Shown: positions 6,340 to 21,109 of the stretch, one piece after another | Layout of the letters: each line of letters begins with the position of its first letter | How positions within the stretch are numbered: the first letter of the stretch is position 1 | From: an uncultured cyanobacterium | GTDB taxonomy: Bacteria; Cyanobacteriota; Cyanobacteriia; Cyanobacteriales; Cyanobacteriaceae | Length of the DNA stretch: 64,000 nucleotides | Assembly: GCA_963710605.1 (NCBI GenBank) | Contig: CAVQBA010000001.1 | Coordinates: 160,001 to 224,000 of the forward strand | Direction of reading: 5' to 3' | Made by a program: the position numbers and the translations under genes | The notes under the pieces: generated by a model | The model's input: the letters and a program-made list of their open reading frames with translations, nothing else | What the model was told of the DNA's origin: nothing | Database searches by the model: none

Positions 6340-7201
6340 TTAATTTTCTATTTTCAATCCATATAATTTTGCCATTTTCCTAACTTCCTCAACCATTTTT
6401 TCTCTGACATTATCGGGAGAAATAATTTCACAGTTTTTACCGTAGGGTATCACTTCCCTGATTAACCAAAAAGGATTACTGACTTTTCTGATTACTTGAC
6501 GTATATCTCCTATCTCTTCGTTACTCATATCTTGGTCTTTTGCTTCGTAGGCTTTTACCATCCCACCATAAAAGTGTAAATACACTTTACAGAAGCCTAA
6601 TCCTTCTTTTCGCCATTTACTTTGTAATTTTTCAACACTTTTAATTCGATCGAGTCTCAAACAGCGATTATGAATAAGTTCTGGATAATCAGTATTTTTA
6701 ATATCTTCTGTTTCTTCACACCAAATGTTTAAGTAAGTACGCTTTTCTTGTCTTTTTATCTGGGCATACCTCACGGTATAAAGTAGTTTTTCTTCTTGAG
6801 CGTTTTCATAAGTTAAGCAAAAACATTGCTTTTGCTCAATATATTGTTCTAATTGCGATCGCCAACCGATTGCTGGTTGCTCAATGATACTTTGTAAAGA
6901 TAAAGCCATCGGGTTTTCTAAGTCACCATTGTTCAAAAGCAGATTAACTAGGGTTTTTGCTTCTTCAATCTCATCACGATTCGATCGAATTTTTAACTGA
7001 TTTTTCCAGTGCTTCTACTTGTTGTGGATTGAGTCTAAATAGTTTTTTAATTGTCGTAGAATCTGAAGCGATCGCTGTTATCAACCCAGAAATAGAAGGA
7101 CGATCGCCCCATGTAATATCTAATTCATCAGCTATTTTCTCTAATTTTTCTTTTGTCCCCGATGGTATTGACAAAGTAATTGTTTCTTTTTTTCTACCCA
7201 T
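6340..7201 (-). CDS. CRISPR-associated WYL-domain transcriptional regulator with N-terminal RHH-like domain (frameshift near 6975)
   Basis: Joined ORFs 6974-7201 (MGRKKETITLSIP) and 6340-6936 (YLNIWCEET, NRCLRLDRI, FWLIREV); divergent from the cas operon as in cyanobacterial I-D loci. Confidence 0.85.
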
Positions 7202-7213
7202 ACAAAAAATGTA

Positions 7214-7254
7214 TTGACATTTATAGTTTTTTTGTTATCATAGCAATATGATAA
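7214..7254 (+). promoter_or_regulatory. Probable cas-operon promoter with overlapping palindromic operator
   Basis: TTGACA 7214-7219, TATCAT 7236-7241; perfect inverted repeat TTATCATA-N4-TATGATAA 7235-7254. Confidence 0.6.
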
Positions 7255-7299
7255 TTACAATTATATCATTTTGATAAGACGATAAGTAAAGTAAACATT

Positions 7300-7506
7300 A
7301 TGACCTTAGCTGATTTACTGCCATCAATTAAACAATTAAAATCCGCAGAAAAAATTAAATTGATTCGGATTTTAGCGGAAGATTTGGAAATGGATAAAAA
7401 TATTGAGCCTTTAAAAACTAATCACACTTACAACTTAGCAACTCCTTATAACAGTTATAGTGCGGCTGAGATATTAATGGAAACTCTCAATCAAGCAAAA
7501 GAGTAA
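7300..7506 (+). CDS. Small hypothetical protein (antitoxin-like), partner of the downstream protease
   Basis: 68 aa, MTLADLLPSIKQLKSAEKIKLIRILAEDL. Confidence 0.65.
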   Translation: MTLADLLPSIKQLKSAEKIKLIRILAEDLEMDKNIEPLKTNHTYNLATPYNSYSAAEILMETLNQAKE

Positions 7507-7511
7507 ATGAA

Positions 7512-7919
7512 ATGCGTTTTAAATATTCAACAATCAATTCATCTCAAAACGAATTAGATAGTCTTCCTCGTCTTCCTATCACTTTAACTTATGAAAATAG
7601 AAGTATTGAGCTTTTAGGTTTAGTTGACAGTGGTGCAACAGTGAATGTCTTACCTTACGAAATCGGTATTGATTTAGGTGCTTTTTGGGATGACAGTCAA
7701 AGAATTATTAGTTTGTCAGGCAATTTAGGTAATCAACCAGCTATTCCTTTTATTGCTACTGCAAAGATTGCTGATTTTACTTCTGTAAGATTAGTTTTTG
7801 CTTGGACAAAAACAACTAATGCACCTTTGATTTTAGGGCAAACTAATTTTTTTTATGAATTTGATGTTTGTTTTTATCAATCGAAATTTGAGTTTGAAGT
7901 GAAACCAAAAACAAATTAG
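7512..7919 (+). CDS. Retropepsin-like aspartyl protease
   Basis: LVDSGATVNVLP catalytic motif and ILGQTNFF motif. Confidence 0.85.
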   Translation: MRFKYSTINSSQNELDSLPRLPITLTYENRSIELLGLVDSGATVNVLPYEIGIDLGAFWDDSQRIISLSGNLGNQPAIPFIATAKIADFTSVRLVFAWTKTTNAPLILGQTNFFYEFDVCFYQSKFEFEVKPKTN

Positions 7920-8114
7920 GAAAAGATTGAAAGATGAAATTAATGATTTTCTAAAAGAAAACAGGGAATTGATAGCATGATTGACATCAAGCGAAAACTA
8001 AGGAAAGACGGCTTTCCGATGTGGGAATATTCTAATAATAGTTGATTGTCGATCGAATTTTAAATTTGAAGTAACACCAATAACAGAATAAGTAAATTAA
8101 TTAAGGAGATTTCA

Positions 8115-8306
8115 GTGATGAAAAAAACACTTCCCATCGTGATGGTGAAATTAATGTCTGATGGTAATTGGCATTCAACAGATGAGTTAGTAGAAAAAAT
8201 TAGTCATCGTTTTTCGGCAACTAAACATATTTTGAAAAAACAAGGTTATCGATTTGAATCTCGTCGAATTGAAGGGAATAAATGTGAGTATCGTTTAGTA
8301 GTTTAA
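8115..8306 (+). CDS. Small winged-helix-like protein
   Basis: 63 aa, LMSDGNWHSTDEL...LKKQGYRFE; AAGGAG RBS. Confidence 0.6.
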   Translation: MMKKTLPIVMVKLMSDGNWHSTDELVEKISHRFSATKHILKKQGYRFESRRIEGNKCEYRLVV

Positions 8307-8350
8307 ATTTTTAAAATTAAGCCAAAATCTTAGTAAAGGAGGAAAAAATT

Positions 8351-8641
8351 ATGAATCTTGAATTACTTAAACAAAAACGAGCAGAAATTATTAATATTGC
8401 CAAAAAGCATGGTGCGTATAATATACGAGTATTTGGTTCGGTTGCCAGAGGCGAAGCCGATGAAAAAAGCGACATTGATTTTCTGATTGATTATGACATC
8501 GATAAAATTACCCCTTGGTTTCCTGTGGGGTTAATTCATGACTTGCAGGATTTCTTAGGTGAAAAAGTCGATGTTGTTACAGCCGATGGTTTAAAAGAAA
8601 GAATCAAACCAAGAGTTTTACAGGAGGCGATTACATTATGA
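8351..8641 (+). CDS. Minimal nucleotidyltransferase (MNT) antitoxin family
   Basis: VFGSVARGEADEKSDIDFL and KVDVVT motifs. Confidence 0.92.
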   Translation: MNLELLKQKRAEIINIAKKHGAYNIRVFGSVARGEADEKSDIDFLIDYDIDKITPWFPVGLIHDLQDFLGEKVDVVTADGLKERIKPRVLQEAITL

Positions 8642-11600
8642 CTAAACCAGACATTCAAAATATATTAAACGAATATATAGAGATTGTGATTCCAGCAATG
8701 TATGAGCAAAAATACCATCTAATATTAGCAAAAGGTGGTATTGATTATCCTTATCTGTGTGAGCAATCACATTTGAAACATAGTTTAAATGGTATTTTCG
8801 GTTTAATTGAAATACTTAAATTTATTCAATTAGAGAATCTTTTTGTTTATGGATTAAATGAGTCAATCATTCGTAAGGCTTTAGCATTGATTACTATTCA
8901 TGATGAGCACAAATTTAAAGATTATGAAAAAATTGGAAATTCAGAATTTGCAATTCCTTTAGAAAGACTTGAAAAAAAATATAAAACACTTAATTTAATT
9001 GATTTTGCAGGTGGATTGAATCCTCACATAATACGACATGGTAATGTCAGCAAAAGAAGTTCACATCACGGAGATTTATTATCTTCTGATGAAGAGCATG
9101 GAAGTTTACTGTGGTTATTAGTAAGAGTTGGAGATACTATTGCATCTGTTACCAGTGCTTCTGAAGCTGTAGTTTCATTAAGAAATTATTTAAGTGACTT
9201 AATTCCTGATTTTGCTAAAAAATATCAACTTTATTATCACGATTTGGGTGATATTCGGGGAGTTTTAACTAATTTAATTCATAGTACAGTAACTCAATAT
9301 TTAAGAAAACAATTTGGGTTTCAAGATATTGTTTATTTTGCAACAGGAACTCTTTATATAGGTAAAAAAGAAATTAATAATTTTGTAAGGAAATATTTTA
9401 TTGATAATCTTGTTAAAAATATTATTGATAATTTACAACCTTCAACAGAAATGGCTAAATCTGTTGCTAAAGATGGTGTAAGAGAAAAAAATTACGATTT
9501 TCAAGATTATATTTACAAATTATCTACTATCGAACTTTTACTAGAAATAATTTTAGAAACAACACAGACTATAAACAAACCTGATGGGAAAACTATAAAT
9601 AAAGATGTTCAAGCTATTGCTAAGAAAAAAACTACTCCTAATGGATGGTTAGATTCTTTTGAAGATAAATATAATGTATCATTAAATGAATCTGAAGATT
9701 TTCATAAAAGATGGTTTTTAGTAAGACGTTATTTATTATATGTTGACAATCTTTTAAAAGTACTTGTACCTGATTTAGATCAAGTTAGTTGGTTTTGTGA
9801 ATTATTTGAAATTTATCCTAATATAAAATTTAATATACAGGAAGAAAAACAATTATTTGCTAGTGGTGGTTTAGGTAAATATGTAATTATTTATGGTTAT
9901 CATTTTTTAAACGGCGTTGATTTTAAAAATAGATCAGCAGAATCTTGTGATTTTCCTAGAGTAATAGAATTACTTAATCAACGTATTGCTAATGCTGTTA
10001 GTAAAATTGATGATCGGGCTGGAAAAAACAAAATCATAGAAAAATTAGGTTTTAGAGAAGAACTAGGGAATTATTTGCAAGAAAATTTACTTTTATCTTT
10101 TTCCTCTAAAGTAAATTTAAGTGATGATTCATTTTCTGATTATGCTATCACTAAGAAAAAAGGACATTCAAATCAATTATGTTCTATTTGTAATCGAAAT
10201 AGTAAATATACCCAACCATTAAGAACAGGTATTTTAGGCGATTCAGGACAAAGTTTTTCCAATCGAGTTTTACCAGCTAAAAAAGTTCCTAATAATTTAC
10301 GTCCTTGGTGTCCAATTTGTCACTTAGAGTTTATTTTACGAAAAATCACAGGTTTGTCTTTACCTAAAGGTGCAGATTACAACAAATCTCGTCGCATCCA
10401 TCTTTATGTTTTGCCAACATTCTCTTTTACAGCAGAATCTATCAAGTTAATTGGCAGAGTATTAAAACCATTACAGGAAATTTCAGCCTTGCCCATCAGA
10501 GATTTTGGAGAAGAATCCCCGGATTACCTAATTTTTGGCTTAAAAATAGAAGTCTTGATCCTGAATGGATTGAGACGGTTATTGATGTATTTAATCGTGA
10601 AGCCCAAAGAATTGCTGAAAAACCTAATTATGTAGGAGAAAGATTACTTGCAACTCAAAATAATTTTAATCAAGAAGATGAAAATAATAAAGATGAAAAC
10701 AAAGCAAAACCACAACCTCATTATTATTTAATTCCTTGGGAGCGTTCAGTTTATGAAAGCGATAAAGATGATGCTAACATTCCCACTCGCACTGAAGCAT
10801 GGGCTAAGGCAACTTTTGCTGGTGTGATCATTTCTAGCTTAACCAGTAGTCGGGTTTATGTGACAGAACAACCATATTTATTTGTTGCCAATGCTTCTGA
10901 GTTAAAAGCCACTGTCACTCTTGATTCTCCACCACCGATTATTACTAAATTATTAGGTAGTGAACAAGACTCAAAACTTTGTAATCGTCCTGATACTATT
11001 AGTCTTTATGGAATGGAAAAGGGTTATAAAAGTGGCTTAGAGAGGGCATTAGATTTGTGTTCAGCTTTGTGGATGATTACCAGTAGTGTCCATCGTTCTA
11101 ACTCTCAAACTAAGGATAAACAGATAGCTCAAAGATTAGGCGACTTGCTAGTTAATCCCTTAGCCGGAGCTCATTTTTATAAAGAGTATGGGCGTTTAAA
11201 TGAGGATAAATCCCCATTTCTTTTACTTACTCAAGCTTGTGCAATTCTTTTAGAATATTTTGGAGGTGACTTAATGAATTTAGTGACAAAAAATTGCCGA
11301 GAAATCGTTACAAATTCGTCTTCCTTTTCGTGAATATGGAAGGGGAAAAGCTCATAATTATGAGTTAGTTTTACGAGAATCTGTTGATGCTATTCGAGGG
11401 GCTTTTCGGTTAATTTCTGAATTACGTCAAACAGCATTAACGGGTCAAATTCCTCCTGATGAAGCAATTACAGAGTTGAAAATCAAGCATCGGGAACGCT
11501 TCTAAAGGTATGGAAACACCGAAAAGCTACTAAACGAGGTGATGGTGTCATTAATCCTGAAGGCAAAGATTTAGGCGATTTAGTCGGAGAATTTATTGAT

Positions 11601-11790
11601 TTGATGATTGATGAAGTCTTTTTAGACCGTTGCGATCGAATCGTTTGCTCAATTCTTAAAACTAGAAAATAATCTTGCTGATGGTATTTATTATTACACC
11701 AATCGAAATGTTAATCAAAAATGGGAGGAATATAACGAGCTTAAAGCTAAAAACAAAGCTAAAAAAGATTCTGATAACCCCAATGATTAA
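8638..11790 (+). CDS. cas10d: Type I-D large subunit Cas10d/Csc3 with N-terminal HD domain (several frameshifts)
   Basis: AKGG...EQSHLKHSLNG, ITIHDEHK, CSICN, QSFSNR, CPICHLEFILRK; continues via 10824-11333 to DGIYYYTNRN...NPND* ending 11790. Confidence 0.88.
11274..11790 (+). CDS. cas11d: Probable internally translated small subunit Cas11d
   Basis: GGAGGT RBS at 11262-11267 followed by in-frame ATG 11274 in the 3' part of cas10d; internal Cas11d translation is established for type I-D. Confidence 0.65.
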
Positions 11791-11870
11791 GATACAAGCA
11801 AGATGCTTGTTTTACAAAACAATCTCAAAACTTGATTTAACTAATATTTATTCTTTAAGGAGAAACAACA

Positions 11871-12954
11871 ATGACTAGCAATAATAATCAATTTTCTACA
11901 CTTCAAAAATATGCTAAATATTTTGTATCTGAACCACCAAAAACACCTATGGGTAAATATGCAAGTATTCTTGTCTTACGAGAAACTAAATCCTACGCTA
12001 TTTTCACAACTGAAGGAGGTCAACAACAAGATATAGAAAGAACAAAAGCAGGTTTAAATAACTCGAATCCTGTAGATCGTTTAGTTATGTTTAAACGTAA
12101 ACAAGTTGCACCCGAAAGACGTACAGGAAAAGCATTGATGCGTCAATATAGTGTTTTTCCTTATGGCTTAGTCAAAAAAGAAAATAAATTTCAGAGTGTG
12201 GCTTATGGTGAAAATGCGATTGCAGAAGCAGAAGCTAAAAAGAAAGATAAAGTTAATATTAAATCTTATTCTGACTGCTATTTGACCGCAGGATTATGTG
12301 GACATTGCACTGATTGTATGACTTATGGTTATGCGGCGATCGAAGGTGAAGGTTCGCGCTCAAGTCGCATTATCACAGATTCATGTTTTACAGTGCGTCC
12401 TTATGCCTTAATTCAAAAAGGTTTGAAGTTTAATGTAATTGATGAAAAAACCCAAACTTCAGGGACAATAACTGAATATGATTATACTCAACCCGAAGTC
12501 TTTTTACCCTCAGTCGTTACTACCGTTGATTTAACCTTAGAAGAATTTGTTTATACTCTGATTAATCTTCTACGCACAACACGTTACGGGAAAGAAGCTT
12601 CACGTCAAGGTTTTATGCGGAATCACATTTTAGGAATTGCTTTTTCTGATGTGGAATTATTCTCAAATCTTGAATTTAGTCAAGCTTTTTATGATGTTTT
12701 TAAAGATGATGAAAATATTGATTTAATGAAGGGCTTTTTATCTTTACAACATTTTTCAGAATCATAAAAAGCAAATTATTCAAACATTAACAAGTAAGTT
12801 AAATGGACGGTTAAATATTATTAATAATTCTGAAGAATTAGAAGCTATTTTAGCTGAAATTCGGACATTAAACCAAGATGAAACTGCTTTAACAGAATTT
12901 TTACAAAATCTCAACACTCAATCTGCACGTTTTTCTATTGAACTTAATAATTAA
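11871..12954 (+). CDS. csc2: Type I-D Cas7/Csc2 (frameshift near 12765)
   Basis: LRETKSYAIFTTEG, FKRKQVAPERRTGK, CGHCTDCMTYGYA, LRTTRYG. Confidence 0.92.
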
Positions 12955-12956
12955 TT

Positions 12957-13767
12957 ATGGAAATTTATCGAGCCAAATTAGAGGTTTTGGATTACCTGTT
13001 TTATGCAACAACCGAGATTGGAAAAGTTTATGAAACAGGTGCATTTATTCATAATTACGCCTTATGTTATGGCTTAAAATTAGTAAATGCTCCTTATTCT
13101 CGTCAAATCCAAAAACCTACTTATGAACAAGACTTAAAGCCTTTAAAGGAATTAGGAATTTATATAACACCTGCTTATCCTTTGCAAATATCCTATCGTT
13201 TAATTCAATGGAATACCATTCAAGAAAGATATGGTTTTCACAGGGAAAGAGAAGAATATTGGTTATCCAGATTGGGGCTTTGCTCGTGTTATTACTCCTG
13301 AAAGTTTGTTTGAATTTTATATTTTAATTGCTGATATTCAAACACTAAAACATTATCCTCAACTAGAGCAATTAATAACAGAAAAAACTGGTTATATTCG
13401 ACTAGGTAAATTTTTAGCAAAATCAAGTTTGGCTTTAACAAAAGCTCAAGAAATAACCACAAAAAAAGGTTTATTTGTAGCAGGTATTACAGATGATAGA
13501 GGAAGATTACCATCAGAAAAAGGTCAATCATCTCTATTATTAAACTGGCGAGATATAACTCTTGATCCTTTTACTTGTGATATTTATCCTGCAACTTTAC
13601 CAACTCGTTTAATAGCTAATCCTAAATATGAAAATGCTAATTTTTATCATATTAATTTTGGAGATAAAGATGAAATTAAACTACCACAAAATATGAGTTT
13701 TGTTGCTCGTCCACTAACTAGCAATAACAAGAAAAATAAAACTGCTAAAAAGACAGAAAATGATTAA
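12957..13767 (+). CDS. csc1: Type I-D Cas5/Csc1 (frameshift near 13240)
   Basis: LFYATTEIGKVYETGAFIHNYALCYGL, YITPA, YIRLGKF. Confidence 0.9.
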
Positions 13768-15877
13768 TTTAAACATTTCTCCTGTTACTTTAAATCAAGT
13801 TAATACTGATCAATGGCTAACAGGAAAAAAACCTCATGAATATCAATGGAAAGCTTATCAATTAATTCAAGAAGCTTTTAAACAAAAAAAAACATTATGT
13901 TTATTCTTAATAACTCCTACCGGAAGTGGTAAAACTTTAGCTTCTTATGCTCATAGTATCAAAACAGGTTTACCCGTGATTGGAGCTTATCCTACCAATG
14001 AATTACTAGCAGACCAAGAGAGGGCTTTATCTGATGAATATAAACAAACAGGTACGAATATAATAGAACGAATAGATAGCGAAACTCTAGATAGATTACA
14101 AATAGAATATGAGTTAAATCGTCATAGTCAAACTTTAGAGAAAATTCTGAATCAAAGACCAGTAATTTTAACCAACCCAGATATATTATTTTATGTGATT
14201 TTTGGATTATATCCAGCTATTTATAGTTTAAGGGAAAGATTATGGTCATTAGTTGGTAGTTATAAACTATTTGTTTATGATGAATTTCATTTATATAATG
14301 TTAAACAACAAGCAGATACAGCCTTTTTTATTGGTGCTTTAAATACGATTAAATCTGATACTCCTAGAGTGTTTATTTTTGCTTCAGCTACACCTAATTT
14401 AGAAATAGTTAACTTATTAAAAAATAAACTTAATTTATGGGTAGAAACCGTTGCTTCAACACCATCAAATCAAGACTCAGCTTATACTATTGCTCATCCT
14501 GTTAATTTAACATTAATTCCTTCTAATTTGGACAAATGGCAAGGATTAAAAACTTTAGATGAATCTTTTGATATTATTACATCTTTCAATCAAAAATATT
14601 CTGATTCTCGTTATGTTGGAATTTTTGATTCTGTTGCAGGTGCTATTGGTGCAGCTAAAAGTTTTAAAAATTTTTTTGAATTTGCTCAAGTAGGAGAAAT
14701 ACATGGTTTAAGTTCAAAAAAAATGAGGGAAGAATCACTAGCAAAAAAAGTAACTATTGGCACATCAACTATAGAAGTAGGTGTTGATTTTAAAGGAAAA
14801 TATGAAAAAGATTTTTTAATCTTAGAAGCAAGGACAAGTAGTCAATTTATTCAACGATTTGGACGTATTGCTAGACATAATAAATCATTAAATATTCCCA
14901 ATCAAGTTTTAGCACTTGTACCTGATTATGTTTCTAACTATTTTGAGGAAAAACTTACATCTGAGTCAAATATTACTCGTCAAGAATTAACTAATTTAAT
15001 CGAAGAAGCCTACCGTGATTTAGAAAACTTTGAACGTTATTTGAGTAAACATGCTTTAGTTGAGATGATTGAAGCAAGTAATTTAGTAATGAGACTATTT
15101 CAGGCAGATGTTAAACCTAGAATTAAAGATGGGTTAGCTAATGTAATAAAAAAACTAACAGGCAAAAGTTATGAACAAGCACAGGCTAGAAGAAAAGAAT
15201 ATAAAAATGAAAAAATATTAAATCCATTATTAACATTTAGGGGAAGTGGTTTAGAAGTAGCAATTATCGATAAACGAGGTGACGATGTAGGGTTTCCTAT
15301 AAAAAGATATAATCTAATGTTTATTTTAAGACGAGGTATTTTTGACGAAATTAGTCAAGATACTTTTGTTAAAAAGTTAGAAAAAATAGAACAACAGGAT
15401 TCTCAATATAATTATGAAATTCATCGTGAAAAAAGATTTTCTGAACTTACTAAGCCTTCATCTGAAGAATTGCTTGGAGTCTATGGATTTTTTCGTTTGA
15501 AAGGATTAATTGATGATGGTGATAAAACTAGACGAGTTTGGTTTGAAATCAATCAAGAAGATATTGAAGGAAAGTCTGGAAAAGTTACTGTTTTAGAAAG
15601 ATTATCTATTCAAACTGAACCTAAAACTTTTATCAGATTACTTCAAAAAGTGTTTCGCAAAAAACAGATAGTTGCTTGGGTAATCGATAAACATCCACAT
15701 AGTATTAAATTTGGTCGTTCATTACCTCCTTTATTTGCTATTTATGAATTGCAAGTAATACTTGTAGGTGGTGGTCATAGTAAACAATCATGGAGTATTG
15801 CTTTTAACCAAGATGCTTTCTTTTTGGATAGTCTGTATTGGAATCTAAACAAGTCTAATGATTTTATGTGCTGTTAA
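13760..15877 (+). CDS. cas3: Type I-D Cas3' helicase (no HD domain)
   Basis: PTGSGKT, YPTNEL, LTNPDI, DEFHLY, SATP, QRFGRIARH. Confidence 0.93.
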   Translation: MINLNISPVTLNQVNTDQWLTGKKPHEYQWKAYQLIQEAFKQKKTLCLFLITPTGSGKTLASYAHSIKTGLPVIGAYPTNELLADQERALSDEYKQTGTNIIERIDSETLDRLQIEYELNRHSQTLEKILNQRPVILTNPDILFYVIFGLYPAIYSLRERLWSLVGSYKLFVYDEFHLYNVKQQADTAFFIGALNTIKSDTPRVFIFASATPNLEIVNLLKNKLNLWVETVASTPSNQDSAYTIAHPVNLTLIPSNLDKWQGLKTLDESFDIITSFNQKYSDSRYVGIFDSVAGAIGAAKSFKNFFEFAQVGEIHGLSSKKMREESLAKKVTIGTSTIEVGVDFKGKYEKDFLILEARTSSQFIQRFGRIARHNKSLNIPNQVLALVPDYVSNYFEEKLTSESNITRQELTNLIEEAYRDLENFERYLSKHALVEMIEASNLVMRLFQADVKPRIKDGLANVIKKLTGKSYEQAQARRKEYKNEKILNPLLTFRGSGLEVAIIDKRGDDVGFPIKRYNLMFILRRGIFDEISQDTFVKKLEKIEQQDSQYNYEIHREKRFSELTKPSSEELLGVYGFFRLKGLIDDGDKTRRVWFEINQEDIEGKSGKVTVLERLSIQTEPKTFIRLLQKVFRKKQIVAWVIDKHPHSIKFGRSLPPLFAIYELQVILVGGGHSKQSWSIAFNQDAFFLDSLYWNLNKSNDFMCC

Positions 15878-15978
15878 TTAATATGCCTCCTGTTAGTTTA
15901 ATTCGTAATGTGACCATGGAAGGAAAATATTACCAAGACTTTAATCTTCCTGTCAACATCAATTATCGCTTTCACTAA
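15877..15978 (+). pseudogene. 3' remnant of a second, canonical cyanobacterial csc1
   Basis: Translates INMPPVSLIRNVTMEGKYYQDFNLPVNINYRFH*, matching the recalled C-terminal NMPPVSLI.NV...G.YYQ motif of cyanobacterial Csc1. Confidence 0.75.
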
Positions 15979-16076
15979 TTCTTTTTGACGACAATCCTAA
16001 TCTCCCTACACCACACAATATTGATAATTATCAGTCTGCGAATGATATTCAACCCCTACGACAATACATTAAAAAT

Positions 16077-16895
16077 ATGCCTTACAGTCTCGTCATTAAC
16101 TTTACCAATACCACCGATATTCCTCGTGGTTATACCTCAGGAAAACACTTACACGCTCTATTCCTAACTCTTGTAAATTCGATCGATAATCAGTTAGCAG
16201 AATACTTACATCGATCGTCATCTAACAAAGATTTTACCATTAGTCCCTTACAAGTAGTAAATCATCAAAATCAAAATCAAATTACTTGGCAAAAACAAAA
16301 AAAAGATATCAAAAAAGGTTCAAACTGTTGGTGGCGAATTACCCTCTTAGACGATCGTTTATTTGGTTTATTAACTCCTTTATGGCTTAGTATTAATCCT
16401 CAAAAACCGTTTCATTTAGGAAGTGGCGAATTACAAATAACTAGTATTTTATCTAGTAATAATAGTCACCCTTGGGCTAATGCTTGTACTTATCAAGATA
16501 TTAATGAAAATGCTTCGCAAACTAATAGAAATCTTCAGTTTAAAATATACACACCAATGGCTTTTCGTCAAGGTAAATACGATATATCTTTACCAACTGC
16601 CGATTTAGTTTTTTCTAGCATATTAAGGCGTTGGAATAATTACAGTAATCTTCCTTTTGATAATGTCGATTTTAGCTCTATCTTTCCTGCTTATTTCGAT
16701 TTAAAAACCGAAGTTGTGATTAACGATAAGAATAAATTTATTGGTTGTGTAGGAGATATTAATTACAAGATTTTAGGTGAGATAGATTCGTCTTTAATTA
16801 AGACAATAAATATTCTTGCTGACTATGTTTTTTACTGTGGAATTGGCAGAAAAACCACTATGGGGATGGGCATAACTACAAGAGTTAAAAGTTAA
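16077..16895 (+). CDS. cas6: CRISPR endoribonuclease Cas6
   Basis: MPYSLV, GKHLHALFL, TPMAFRQG, G-rich loop YCGIGRKTTMGMG. Confidence 0.95.
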   Translation: MPYSLVINFTNTTDIPRGYTSGKHLHALFLTLVNSIDNQLAEYLHRSSSNKDFTISPLQVVNHQNQNQITWQKQKKDIKKGSNCWWRITLLDDRLFGLLTPLWLSINPQKPFHLGSGELQITSILSSNNSHPWANACTYQDINENASQTNRNLQFKIYTPMAFRQGKYDISLPTADLVFSSILRRWNNYSNLPFDNVDFSSIFPAYFDLKTEVVINDKNKFIGCVGDINYKILGEIDSSLIKTINILADYVFYCGIGRKTTMGMGITTRVKS

Positions 16896-16915
16896 GAGTT
16901 AAGAGTTAAAAGTTA
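16881..16915. repeat. Heptamer array A(G/A)AGTTA x5
   Basis: Runs from the last cas6 codons to the ATG of the next gene. Confidence 0.9.
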
Positions 16916-17262
16916 TGAAACGAAGTATTGTTTATGAAAAGGCTTATAAATTTTCTATTCGAGTTATTAAAGCCTATAAATATTTGACAAAAGAAAAAAA
17001 AGAATTTGTTTTGTCCAAACAATTATTACGCTGTGGTACTTCAATTGGTGCAAATATTGCTGAAGCAAATGGGGCTATTTCTCAAGCTGATTTTAAAAAT
17101 AAAATGTCGATCGCTTACAAAGAATCTTTAGAAACAATATATTGGTTATCCCTATTAAAAGACACAGAATATATTGAAGAAAAATCGTATCAAAGTATCA
17201 ATAAAGAGGTAGTCGAAATCAGCAAAATGTTATGTTCGATTGTCAAAAATACCAATTCTTAA
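16915..17262 (+). CDS. Four-helix-bundle protein (23S rRNA IVS protein / TIGR02436-like)
   Basis: KQLLRCGTSIGANIAEA, DFKNKMSIAYKESLETIYWL. Confidence 0.92.
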   Translation: MKRSIVYEKAYKFSIRVIKAYKYLTKEKKEFVLSKQLLRCGTSIGANIAEANGAISQADFKNKMSIAYKESLETIYWLSLLKDTEYIEEKSYQSINKEVVEISKMLCSIVKNTNS

Positions 17263-17299
17263 CTCTTAACTCTTAACTTTTAACTCTTAACTTTCAACT
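17260..17299. repeat. Heptamer array TAACT(C/T)T x5, inverted relative to 16881-16915
   Basis: Runs from the stop codon to the cas4 ATG. Confidence 0.9.
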
Positions 17300-17926
17300 A
17301 TGGACTATATTCCTATCGCATCTTTAAACCATTACAGCTATTGCCCTCACCGATTTTGGCGGATGTTTTGTGCTTCTGAATTTACAGACAATCAGTACAC
17401 CATAGATGGCACTACATTACACGATCGAGTTCATACCGTGGGGGACTTAAATAGAGAGGAAACTTGGCAGATTCGAGCAATATGGCTTAAATACGAGCGT
17501 TATCAACTTATTGGTAAAGCAGACTTAATTGAAGTGGAAAATGGTGAATTCATCCCGATTGAATACAAAAGAGGACGGAAAAACCAATGGACAAACGATG
17601 CCCTACAAGTTGCCGCTCAAGCCTTATGTTTGGAAGAAATGACCGACACAAGTATCGATATTGGTTATGTTTATTACGCTCAAACACACCAACGGCAAGA
17701 GGTAAAAATAGATCGACAATTAAGAGATTTGACAGTAGAAACGATCGATCGAATCAAAAATATTATGAATAACAACATCATACCACCAGCCCAATACGAC
17801 AAACGTTGCAAGGGTTGTAGTCTTTATTCTGCTTGTCTGCCGAGGGCGAGTAAAAAAATCGAATCGTTATCAAGAAGCAAATTAAACAAAAAAGTGTTTT
17901 TTCAAAAGAAATACTGTAGGGGTTGA
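17300..17926 (+). CDS. cas4: Cas4 (true stop possibly near 17885)
   Basis: YSYCPHR, GKADLIE, IEYKRG, QVAAQALCLEEM, CKGCSLYSAC. Confidence 0.95.
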   Translation: MDYIPIASLNHYSYCPHRFWRMFCASEFTDNQYTIDGTTLHDRVHTVGDLNREETWQIRAIWLKYERYQLIGKADLIEVENGEFIPIEYKRGRKNQWTNDALQVAAQALCLEEMTDTSIDIGYVYYAQTHQRQEVKIDRQLRDLTVETIDRIKNIMNNNIIPPAQYDKRCKGCSLYSACLPRASKKIESLSRSKLNKKVFFQKKYCRG

Positions 17927-17963
17927 ACATTGTTCAACCCTAAACCCTTATTCAACCCTAAAC
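17915..17963. repeat. REP-like hairpin GTAGGGGTTGAAC...GTTCAACCCT
   Basis: Related copies near 16040-16061 and 26910-26937. Confidence 0.7.
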
Positions 17964-17999
17964 CAAGAAAACAAAATATTTAACTTTAAGAGGATAAAC

Positions 18000-19014
18000 A
18001 TGGGAACAATTTACGTAACACACGAAGACGCATTTATCGGCAAAATAGATGAAAGAATACAAGTCAAAGCGGATAAAGAAAAAATATTAGACGTACCGCT
18101 AATTAAAACAGACGGCTTGGTAGTTTTAGGAAGAGCGACTATTTCTCCAGCTTTAATCAGTGAAGTTTTAGAAAGAAAAATACCCGTATCTTATTTAACC
18201 AAAACAGGAAAATATCGAGGACGACTAGAACCAGAATTAACCAAAAATATTTTTATCAGAAAAGCACAATGGTTAGCAGTAATGAATGAAGATAATACAC
18301 AAGTTATTCATGTTGTTCGGGCATTTATTCGGGGAAAACTAAAAAATTATCGTAACTTAATTAATCTTAGAAATAGACAGTCGAATAATCATCATTTAAC
18401 AAAAAGTATTACTAAAATAGAATCAATTATAAACTCTTTAGCTACCGCAGATAATGTTAATTCTTTAAGAGGATTAGAAGGTGCGGGAAGTGCGATTTAT
18501 TTTAGTTGTTTTAACCAGCTAATTAAAAACGATCGATTTAGTTTTAATACCCGCAATCGTCGTCCGCCAAAAGATCCCGTTAACTCGTTATTAAGTTTTA
18601 CTTATGCTTTACTCAGACACGATATTCAAAGTGCGGTAAATATTGTCGGGGTTCGATCCTTATTTGGGTTATCTTCATGTTCCTCATTATGGCAGACCAG
18701 CACTAGCTTTGGATTTGATGGAAGAATTTAGACCTTTAGTTGCTGATGCGGTAGTTTTAAATGCGATTAATAATCAAAAAATAACTCCTGAAGATTTTGT
18801 CAGCGAGCCTTTAAGTGAAGCAGTTTCTTTGACGAAAGATGGACTAAAAATATTTTTGCGTTTGTATGAAGAAAAAAAACAATCCAAGTTTAAACATCCT
18901 GTACTGAAAAGACAAGTTACTTATCAAGAATCTTTTGAAATTCAAGCACGATTTTTAGGTAAATATTTAATGGCAGAAACTCAGCAGTATCCACCTTTAA
19001 TTATTAAAAAATAA
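18000..19014 (+). CDS. cas1: Cas1 (frameshift near 18650)
   Basis: LRGLEGAGSAIYF, RNRRPPKDPVNSLLS, DPYLGYLH, LALDLMEEFRP. Confidence 0.95.
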
Positions 19015-19088
19015 AAAGCATAACGATCGATTTTTCGTTCGATACTGAGTAAAAAAAAGGAATAACCTATCAACTATCAATTAATTAA

Positions 19089-19361
19089 ATGTATGTAGTT
19101 ATCAGTTACGATATATCTGAAAATAAAAGAAGAACTAAAATACACAAAATTCTCAAGTCTTATGGAGAATGGGTACAATATAGTATATTCGAGTGTGAGC
19201 TAAGCCAAACTCAATACGCTAAATTACGCGATCGTCTAAGTAAAATAATCGATAACGAAACTGATAATATTCGTTTTTATTTTATGTGTCAATCCTGTCA
19301 AAAGAAAATCGAACGTATTGGCGGAGAATTACCTCGTGATAATACTGTCTTTTTTGCTTAA
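19089..19361 (+). CDS. cas2: Cas2
   Basis: VISYDI, WVQYSIFEC, DNIRFY, CQSC. Confidence 0.96.
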   Translation: MYVVISYDISENKRRTKIHKILKSYGEWVQYSIFECELSQTQYAKLRDRLSKIIDNETDNIRFYFMCQSCQKKIERIGGELPRDNTVFFA

Positions 19362-19538: not shown

Positions 19539-20368
19539 GTGCGACCTGAAAAGTTGCAAGAGAAAAGTCGAATTAAAACTCGCCAACGAGTCATCCGTTG
19601 TGTTATCACCCGAAGGGGCTACATGAGCAATTGTATAGTTTCACAGCTAGAGGGTAATGTCAAGGAAGAATATAGTTAGCAATTACTCCAATTGGCTAGA
19701 TAAAGATGATTATGAAGTCGAATATGTTGATTGAAGCCTCCTAATCATAAGTCACTTGAAATGCTAAATGATACGAGTGATACGAAGATTAGTTCCTTAA
19801 CTATTTATTTAAGGAAAAAAAAGTCATAAGATTAAGGGTTTTTTATGATGATGAACGACATATCTTCGGGGGTATAGACATCTTCTAAAATCATCGCATC
19901 TTAACTCTTGTAAAACAGGATAACTCCCATATGTTCCTATTAGGTAAGGAGAGAGCAATCTCAAATGATGGCATAGGGGAATTAGGATATTAAAGAAGCG
20001 AAGGCTCTCAAATCGCAAGATAACAGGAAAGACTTAACAGTTATAACTGGAGAGATAGGGAAATACCCAATCCGAAAGGATGCTGACTTTAAATGGTATT
20101 TACTAGTTTAGTAGAATCGGAGAAAATAATTAAACCATTATGGAAAAGATAGATGAGTCTAACAACTCAATCGTAACTAATGGGACTTTAACGTGGAACG
20201 ACATTAATTGGCGTAAAACCACAAACAAAGTTCAAGGATTGATGTACCGCATTTACCGAACAACTAAGAGAAAAAATCTTAGAGTAAGTGCTTGAGCTGA
20301 ATGCTTGGAAACTTGCACGTTCAATTCTTAGGGGAGAAAGGGGGAGAAATCCTTCTGCCTTACCCGAC
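19539..20368 (+). mobile_element. Group II intron with internally deleted ORF (non-autonomous)
   Basis: 5' GTGCG; EBS1 AAGGGT (19834-39) in a hairpin loop; domain V 20294-20327 GAGCTGAATGCTTGGAAACTTGCACGTTCAATTC; domain VI ending TTACCCGAC. Confidence 0.92.
20140..20295 (+). pseudogene. Remnant of the intron RT/maturase (RVT_N only, 51 aa)
   Basis: MEKIDES...TWNDINWRKTTNKVQGLMYRIYRTTK...SA*; W..INWRK....V..L..RIYR motif. Confidence 0.85.
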
Positions 20369-20419
20369 ACGCAATCGAACCTTGAAATTCAAATATATCA
20401 ATGCTTTCAATCGTGAGCA
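20369..20419 (+). promoter_or_regulatory. CRISPR leader, repeat-proximal 51 bp
   Basis: ACGCAATCGAACCTTGAAA motif typical of cyanobacterial leaders; directly precedes repeat 1. Confidence 0.75.
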
Positions 20420-21109
20420 GTTGAAATCGACTATAATCCCTATGAGGGATTGAAACTGGGCATAATCTTTTCTTTGATTAAAGGAATTGGGTTGAAATCG
20501 ACTATAATCCCTATGAGGGATTGAAACCTGTTTTCAGCCCTGACATATAAAATCTTAAAATGTTGAAATCGACTATAATCCCTATGAGGGATTGAAACTT
20601 TGTCTCCTTACAAGATAAGCGGAAGCTGAAAAGTTGAAATCGACTATAATCCCTATGAGGGATTGAAACGCTGTCGCAGAATCACAAAGCATATCTAAGA
20701 GATGTTGTTGAAATCGACTATAATCCCTATGAGGGATTGAAACTTAAAACTCCTCCATAGGTAAGCCAAAGCATCATATATGTTGAAATCGACTATAATC
20801 CCTATGAGGGATTGAAACATGTCAATGACGAGAACAGACGAATTTATAAATATCGTTGAAATCGACTATAATCCCTATGAGGGATTGAAACTTTTGTCAA
20901 GTTTGCTCATGAGTTTAATTTCATCAGTTGAAATCGACTATAATCCCTATGAGGGATTGAAACAATTATATAAACAATCGCACGAGAAAACCAATTAAAA
21001 GTTGAAATCGACTATAATCCCTATGAGGGATTGAAACTTTGACATATACTCCATTTACCGATAAAAGTGAACGTTGAAATCGACTATAATCCCTACGAGG
21101 GATTGAAAC
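20420..21109 (+). CRISPR. CRISPR array: 10 repeats of 37 bp, 9 spacers of 34-38 bp
   Basis: GTTGAAATCGACTATAATCCCTATGAGGGATTGAAAC at 20420, 20491, 20562, 20633, 20707, 20782, 20855, 20927, 21001, 21073; last copy has one T>C change. Confidence 0.99.

Follow-up and report, generated by a model that had tools for sequence, protein, structure and literature searches.

Can the interference machinery of a CRISPR-Cas system be exchanged as a unit while the genes that build and process its memory stay in place? This question is raised by a type I-D locus that spans 6.3-21.1 kb of a 64,000-nucleotide (nt) stretch from an uncultured cyanobacterium (GCA_963710605.1, contig CAVQBA010000001.1, positions 160,001-224,000 of the forward strand), hereafter the window, in whose numbering all positions are given. 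Here a set of effector genes ordered cas10d-csc2-csc1-cas3' is followed by a short csc1 remnant of another lineage and then by cas6, cas4, cas1, cas2 and an array. Very probably, a cassette from a distant I-D lineage took the place of the resident effector module, and the tail of the former csc1 was left as a scar. Replacement of the original module by a divergent one had been proposed in a first-pass annotation made from the sequence, and the collinear flanks, mapped junctions, conflicting trees and topology tests described below bear this proposal out.

Two lineages of genes in one locus

The assembly that holds the window comprises 3.93 Mb in seven contigs and is 85% complete; the window lies on contig C1. 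Genes were called with NCBIfam models above their cut-offs, with Pfam and with Rfam. By its sequence, the locus classifies as type I-D, since Cas10d, Csc2, Csc1, cas6, cas4-cas1-cas2 and an adjacent array are all present. The four effector genes lie on the forward strand: cas10d at 8638-11790, csc2/cas7d at 11871-12954, csc1/cas5d at 12957-13767 and cas3' at 13760-15877, the last being an intact helicase gene of 705 codons. The Cas10d/Csc3 model TIGR03174 scores 118.8 bits (cut-off 60) for 8638-10635. In type I-D the Cas3' helicase is a protein of its own and the HD nuclease belongs to Cas10d instead of Cas3; an H-D residue pair close to the start of the present Cas10d may be this catalytic motif. 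The models for Csc2 (TIGR03157) and Cas3' (TIGR03158) reach 202.4 bits (cut-off 38) and 175.7 bits (cut-off 69.1), and the Csc1 model TIGR03159 gives 75.9 bits (cut-off 41.4) and 25.3 bits for two pieces of the gene. These matches confirm the annotated order, which had been set against the cas3-first arrangement usual in cyanobacteria. Among 13 relatives' loci with Cas3', Csc1 and Cas6 matches on one contig, 11 are indeed cas3-first; G011 and G025 run csc1-cas3-cas6.

Two arrangements are distinguished in what follows: type A, the canonical set of the family (cas3'-cas10d-csc2-csc1), and type C (cas10d-csc2-csc1-cas3'). Type-C loci for comparison (L032-L037) come from an uncultured bacterium, Roseofilum, Dapis, a Lyngbya metagenome-assembled genome (MAG), a Phormidium MAG and the cyanobacterium UBA2566. 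Among the relatives, G001 belongs to the same genus, and G017, G002, G018, G009 and G011 to the same family. The effector proteins of the window are closest to those of L032-L037 (Cas10d 57-70%, Csc2 72-78%, Csc1 52-71% and Cas3' 64-67% identity), and the later pieces of cas10d also match the Cas10d of these loci. Identity falls to 34-65% for Chloroflexota, Bipolaricaulota and similar loci, and to 18-45% within the window's own genus, family and order, where 12 of 16 loci have an effector-gene match. Cas3' alone repeats this pattern: identity is 62-68% for Dapis, Roseofilum and Phormidium, drops to about 50% for Chloroflexota and is 24-31% for the relatives.

The genes downstream follow kinship. 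On the forward strand lie cas6 (16077-16895; TIGR01877), cas4 (17300-17926; TIGR00372), cas1 (18000-19014) and cas2 (19089-19361; 86.7% identical to G001), and their nucleotide identity to G001 is 77-81%. At the protein level Cas6, Cas4, Cas1 and Cas2 are about 81-82%, 79%, 75-88% and about 86% identical to G001, 62-84% identical to the same family and 46-79% identical to the order and to L033-L037. For Cas6 the gradation is 82% identity to G001, 63-69% to the family and about 50% to the order. The generic Cas1 model scores 186 against a cut-off of 71.7; the Cas1d-specific model stays below its cut-off (246.9 against 385) because cas1 is split over two frames.

Mapped junctions and a fossil csc1 end

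On the left, homology of the minimal nucleotidyltransferase (MNT) gene (8351-8641, forward strand; Pfam NTP_transf_2) to G017, G002, G018 and G009, at 77-83% nucleotide and 77-89% amino acid identity, ends at 8641. The ATGA at 8638-8641 holds the MNT stop codon, and its ATG, which opens a HEPN partner gene in four family relatives, opens cas10d here; similarity to type-C cas10d starts within some 15-30 nt of this junction. At the right-hand end, the cas3' gene resembles its type-C counterparts as far as the stop codon TAA at 15875-15877, and similarity to the csc1 of G001 starts at the same TAA. Both joints thus lie on gene borders and share just 3-4 bases, ATGA on the left and TAA on the right. 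As native homology breaks at 8641 and resumes at the cas3' stop, the replaced tract would extend over approximately 8642-15874. Both flanks are collinear with same-family loci.

The right flank opens with the fossil itself (15877-15978, forward strand), which comprises the last 33 codons and the stop of the replaced type-A csc1. The annotation had read this segment as the C-terminus of a canonical cyanobacterial Csc1; its translation is as given there, and the identification holds. At the nucleotide level, 15875-15980 is 88.7% identical over 106 nt to the last 105 nt of G001 csc1 (E 5e-33; E 1.9e-30 against the complete G001 genome). The reading frame is open from 15862, and 29 of the 33 residues are identical to G001 Csc1; the Csc1 ends of G017, G002 and G018 are 56-58% identical over 43 amino acids (aa), and Csc1 C-termini in 11 of 16 family and order loci are matched. 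TIGR03159 on the stub alone gives a weak hit (E 0.04, model positions 181-210 of 225). When it is aligned with Csc1 proteins of types A and C, the stub falls on the type-A C-terminus, and the resident Csc1 has ...YPATL-PTRLI... in the same columns, as the annotation had noted for the equivalent position. Besides this stub, no remnant of type-A cas3, cas10d, csc2 or HEPN was found in 6900-16100. Differences between the stub and G001 comprise five synonymous and four non-synonymous codons, and its divergence is no greater than that of its working neighbours (77-81% identity), which agrees with a recent loss of function, although 102 nt are little evidence on this point.

These observations suggest a sequence of events. 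The ancestral layout would have been WYL (reverse strand), a 75-aa gene (reverse strand), MNT-HEPN, cas3'-cas10d-csc2-csc1 and cas6-cas4-cas1-cas2-array, and such a layout is still found in same-family genomes and partly in G001. Because G001 and three family relatives retain a type-A csc1 beside cas6, the swap would postdate the split from G001; everything from the HEPN start codon up to 102 nt before the csc1 stop would then have been replaced by a type-C cassette of 7.2 kb. With so few bases shared at the joints, the imported DNA may have entered by illegitimate or microhomology-mediated recombination.

Composition and conflicting trees

The scarcity of the hexamer CGATCG in the imported block, counted by eye in the annotation as about 2 against about 9 in the cas6-cas2 block, is real: exact counts are 2 in 8638-15877 (0.28/kb) and 10 in 16077-19361 (3.0/kb). 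The window as a whole has 126 (1.97/kb) and the genome 2.15/kb, so that about 15.6 would be expected in the block (Poisson P = 2.4e-5); among 3883 genome windows of 7,240 nt, only 35 contain no more than two. No such depletion is seen in three family relatives, whose type-A effector blocks have 1.2-1.5/kb, and the deficit is therefore not a property of effector genes as such. GC content of the imported part differs little (30.5% versus 33.4%). Taken together, synteny, graded identity and CGATCG density mark both flanks as native and the middle as the outlier, which is why the middle is read as the import.

Phylogenetic trees separate the two sets of genes in the same manner. In the Cas3' tree the window falls in a seven-row type-C clade (Shimodaira-Hasegawa-like approximate likelihood ratio test, SH-aLRT, 95), far from the Cas3' of its family, and this clade is sister to ten non-cyanobacterial rows. 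In the Cas6 and Cas4 trees its partner is G001 (99), and both sit within the clade of the family (100 and 98). Approximately unbiased (AU) tests rejected a grouping of the window with the family clade for Cas3' (delta lnL 720, p 3.3e-5) and with the type-C cyanobacteria for Cas6 (delta lnL 202, p 3.1e-4). Judged from these trees, the effector genes and the cas6 and adaptation genes have conflicting histories. The annotation had named as fatal to a swap either a fragment that fails to hit Csc1, or congruent effector and adaptation trees with the cas10d-first order common among close relatives; the fragment hits Csc1, the trees disagree and the relatives are mostly cas3-first.

The array and the retained genes

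Which parts of the former locus were kept? The annotation listed WYL, cas6, cas4-1-2 and the array. Trees and identities agree with this for cas6 and cas4-1-2, and the array may be added to them; for WYL the indications diverge. The WYL/WCX-domain regulator gene (6340-6936, reverse strand; Pfam WYL and WCX), which lies divergently upstream of the cas genes, is syntenic with the WYL of family loci and with that of type-C loci. Its identity points to type C and its tree weakly to the family, where it groups with two relatives, G017 and G006 (SH-aLRT 88). It is probably native.

The array (20420-21109, forward strand) consists of 10 repeats of 37 nt and matches Rfam CRISPR-DR5. Past cas2, alignability to G001 reaches 19538, and about 880 nt (19540-20419) then separate this point from the first repeat. 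A group II intron remnant lies in this interval, where Rfam RF00029 matches 20292-20368 and an RVT_N fragment occupies 20140-20295. The repeat ends in the 8-nt handle ATTGAAAC, which is common to all I-D loci compared, as is the hairpin. Because all these repeats share both elements, it is plausible that the new Cascade can use CRISPR RNAs made by the old Cas6 from the old array.

The type-C cassette in other genomes

An alignment of 13 Cas3' homologues used as query gave 32 loci; a donor search over genome contigs with a single Cas3' protein had found nothing. In PLSDB, 27 plasmid records match Cas3', all at less than 60% identity, the 15 listed being at 21.7-27.3%, and no plasmid vehicle was found among them. 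The donor is unsampled, because the window cassette is only about 71-73% identical in nucleotides to the type-C cassettes compared.

Elsewhere the cassette is near-identical while the flanking cas genes have diverged, and the swap therefore recurs in other genomes. Between Dapis and the Lyngbya MAG, cas10d is 84% and csc2-to-cas3' 92.6% identical in nucleotides, against 67-72% for WYL, cas6, cas4 and cas1-2. Roseofilum and Dapis belong to different orders in the NCBI taxonomy; between these two the cassette is 91.4% and WYL 66% identical, and cas6 is without a match. The cas10d start and the cas3' stop mark the breaks in identity in both pairs. In the comparison of the Lyngbya MAG with UBA2566, similarity continues for about 600 nt past the cas3' stop. 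Across cyanobacterial genera the figures are 84-93% for the cassette versus 64-72% for WYL, cas6 and cas4-1-2. In addition, CGATCG is at least 2.5-fold rarer in the cassette than in either flank in five of six type-C genomes, and its GC content is at least 4 points below both flanks in four of the six.

It is tempting, though for now only a tentative suggestion and one that we rate as unlikely, to see in the type-C set a discrete cassette that is now spreading in cyanobacteria and repeatedly displaces resident I-D effectors at exact gene boundaries. Its source would be unsampled, low in GC and poor in HIP1, and selection would favour it, for instance through inhibitor escape or a changed protospacer-adjacent motif (PAM) or target range. 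Each host would retain its own cas6, adaptation genes and array, and loci of Chloroflexota and Bipolaricaulota with nested III-D, IV or second I-D sets might be other outcomes of the same process.

Several loci of mixed content were seen among those compared. A Bipolaricaulaceae MAG carries type III Cmr1, Csx11, Cmr4 and Csx10-like genes between csc2 and csc1 (L043:1663-9215), and in an Anaerolineae MAG cas10d is separated from csc2 by genes for type IV-like Csf2 and Csf3 (L056:3257-8095). At L045:1121-7983 a full type-A-like cas3-cas10d-csc2-csc1 set stands between type-C cas10d and csc2, and in UBA2566 a type-A cas10d-csc2-csc1 lies just upstream of the type-C locus (L037:1-3703).

Frame breaks and alternative explanations

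Is the imported module intact? Frame breaks, which the annotation had missed, are present in cas10d (four), csc2 (one) and csc1 (one), that is, six in the block, and one more in cas1, where a run of G near 18650 has an extra G relative to G001. The resulting pieces are 8638-~10500, ~10512-11333, 11287-11505, 11463-11672 and 11626-11790 for cas10d (five pieces), 11871-12767 and 12730-12954 for csc2, and 12957-13301 and 13204-13767 for csc1. Homologues of the broken genes are single frames in L032 and L033, and the cas10d pieces form one frame in L032-L037. As models of rpoB and rpoC2 had no match in this genome, six other long genes served to judge frameshifts. Three of these six essential genes, carB, uvrA and dnaE-n, are also split, at short homopolymers (G000, this genome: C1:328837-328843, C6:96630-96634 and C6:605272-605303), and the assembly therefore carries indel errors. 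Their rate, about 0.2 per kb of coding sequence, has to be weighed whenever a gene of this genome is called a pseudogene. Every break in the cas genes lies at or beside a short homopolymer or a CGATCG site. The sole public run with this sequence (X1), whose low-depth contigs hold 0.16 of the sequence words and give cover in 15 of 30 bins, has a contig over 11330-11738 with single-base indels at 11483 and 11639; it reads through both of these cas10d breaks. Most block frameshifts are probably assembly indel errors. No RNA run holding window sequence is listed among the public runs. Three X1 pieces from the imported block, of 261-359 nt, show 0-1 differences each from the window, and pieces from the native flanks are 92.7-98.4% alike; the run may contain two related organisms, or else diverged backgrounds may have the block in common.

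Several points weigh against an in-place exchange with a functional module, or narrow what can be claimed for it. The block has six breaks in 7.24 kb versus three in about 17.6 kb of the six housekeeping genes (binomial p 0.022), and some decay of the block is possible. None of the X1 reads or contig pieces listed bridges either junction. A close donor was not found in the sampled genomes, the best candidate having 68% Cas3' identity. Gene order alone proves little, as two of the 13 relatives' loci are cas10d-first with a canonical-type Csc1. The groups for the AU tests were fixed only after the trees had been inspected. WYL is closer to type-C loci (47-59% identity) than to the family (34-44%), and the import might therefore begin to the left of the mapped junction, in which case MNT would have arrived afterwards. 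As for retention of the array, its repeat differs from that of G001 and the intron remnant parts it from cas2.

The most serious competitor accepts the swap but holds that cas10d, csc2 and csc1 are true pseudogenes in a decaying relic that no longer interferes. The seven breaks, a density in the block about four times that of the housekeeping genes and the intron remnant between cas2 and the array all speak for such a dead module. Against it stand the frameshifted essential genes, the error-prone positions of all cas breaks, the X1 contig that reads through two of them and an intact cas3', and we judge it unlikely, although with a chance well worth keeping in mind; the module may still be active. 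What selected for the replacement is another matter. Escape from anti-CRISPR proteins aimed at the old Cascade, which the annotation had raised, would be consistent with new Cas10d, Csc2 and Csc1 proteins only 18-45% identical to those of the family, with the spread of the cassette between genera and with the modelled position of AcrID1 at Cas10d in Cascade, as given in the accessible part of a review (PMC10212523). The same pattern would also follow from drift, from the mending of a module that had broken down or from a shift in PAM or target range, and a role for inhibitor escape is doubtful.

Two further explanations deny the direction or the reality of the exchange. If the type-C locus were original and cas6-cas4-cas1-cas2-array had arrived from a relative, DNA cut inside csc1 would also leave a stub by cas6, as a matter of sequence logic. 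This is very improbable, since cas6-cas2 identity is graded by kinship at native CGATCG density, the MNT of the left flank is native as well and the compositional outlier is the block. A chimera of contigs or reads from two organisms, with a block foreign to the locus, would suit an error-prone, incomplete assembly without a bridging public contig. It would demand two false joins that lead back into one and the same native locus, with order and strand correct, and land exactly on a start and a stop codon, with joints that share only 3-4 nt and no repeat; the same gene-boundary breaks moreover occur in independent public assemblies, and such an artefact is, if anything, even harder to credit than the reversed direction. 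In-place exchange of the effector module, with the csc1 tail as its scar, remains the explanation that we favour.

Relation to known type I-D systems

The exchange fits a known picture. The portion of the I-D review available to us (PMC10212523) describes effector genes shuffled while adaptation genes and/or cas6 are conserved, and it distinguishes four Cas10d lineages, two of them cyanobacterial, with a gene order that varies between groups. Exchanges of adaptation against effector modules are likewise tallied in the accessible text of the 2025 classification (PMC12669027). The shuffling of I-D effector modules is thus already in print, and the present locus is a clean example rather than a new principle; the accepted picture of modular CRISPR evolution is unchanged. 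In the parts of these two sources that we saw, the known cases are whole-locus comparisons, whereas here each crossover is placed at single-base resolution and part of the replaced gene survives. A literature search over titles and the beginnings of abstracts returned no paper on a gene stub left by an I-D module swap.

The CRISPR1 system on pSYSA of Synechocystis sp. PCC 6803 (PDB 7SBA/7SBB) is alike in its I-D parts and 37-nt repeats, but cas3' is last in the window and first there, and the window Cas3' is only 25.9% identical to that of pSYSA. Compared with PDB 7SBA, Csc2 matches Cas7d (E 2.8e-42) and Cas10d matches weakly (E 7.6e-5). The window effector set belongs to another I-D lineage than that of pSYSA. 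The cas10d-first loci of Roseofilum halophilum, Dapis sp. BLCC M229, the Lyngbya MAG, the Phormidium MAG and UBA2566, whose sister group is found in Chloroflexota and Bipolaricaulota, show the same order as the window, WYL(-)-75aa(-)-[63aa]-cas10d-csc2-csc1-cas3'-cas6-cas4-cas1-cas2. Unlike them, the window has the cas6-cas2 genes of its host family and a type-A csc1 stub between cas3' and cas6, a stub that was not found at this place in L033-L037.

The locus offers a base-resolved natural case in which the interference machinery of a class 1 CRISPR system was swapped and its memory machinery retained. The scar fixes the direction of the event, and a genome of the same genus, G001, still shows the prior state. 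It also constitutes a natural test of whether a Cascade only 18-45% identical to the old one can function with the old Cas6, the old repeats and spacers selected by Cas4-1-2. The near-identity of the cassette in different cyanobacterial orders suggests that such exchanges are common enough to affect how phages and hosts interact in mats and blooms.

Other features of the locus

Upstream of the block, the 75-aa partner gene of WYL (6974-7201, reverse strand), which has no family name, is conserved beside WYL, and copies 39-62% identical adjoin WYL in 19 of the 32 tabulated loci. Two unnamed open reading frames (ORFs) occupy 7300-7919. A gene for a small protein of 63 aa (8115-8306, forward strand), also without a family name, is conserved 5' of I-D effector genes; the protein is 68% identical to that of G011, 60-64% to those of L032, L033 and L037 and about 40% identical in five same-order loci. 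A Pfam scan of the 75-aa, 68-aa, 135-aa and 63-aa ORFs gave no match above threshold. Through the swap the MNT gene is without its HEPN partner; relatives have one to three tandem MNT-like genes 5' of cas3'.

In G001 (locus L021, G001:C51) the type-A csc2 at 11674-12512 seems to be short or split. Its ORFs have 180 and 99 aa and match no more of the window Csc2 than residues 15-93, and the contig ends inside the locus.

Between cas6 and cas4 lies a gene for a four-helix-bundle protein (16915-17262, forward strand; TIGR02436) that changes position among otherwise collinear loci: it is found in the cas4/cas1 interval in G017 and G009, and a remnant stands between csc1 and cas6 in G001. Several X1 pieces end at 16801-16879 and 17259-17262, the borders of this gene. 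The 98-nt spacer between the csc1 stub and cas6 was considered as a second fossil and rejected, as it holds only a dispersed palindromic element. This element of 21-22 nt (16040-16061), just 5' of cas6, recurs at no fewer than 12 places in the genome and is also present 5' of csc2 in the I-D locus of G001.

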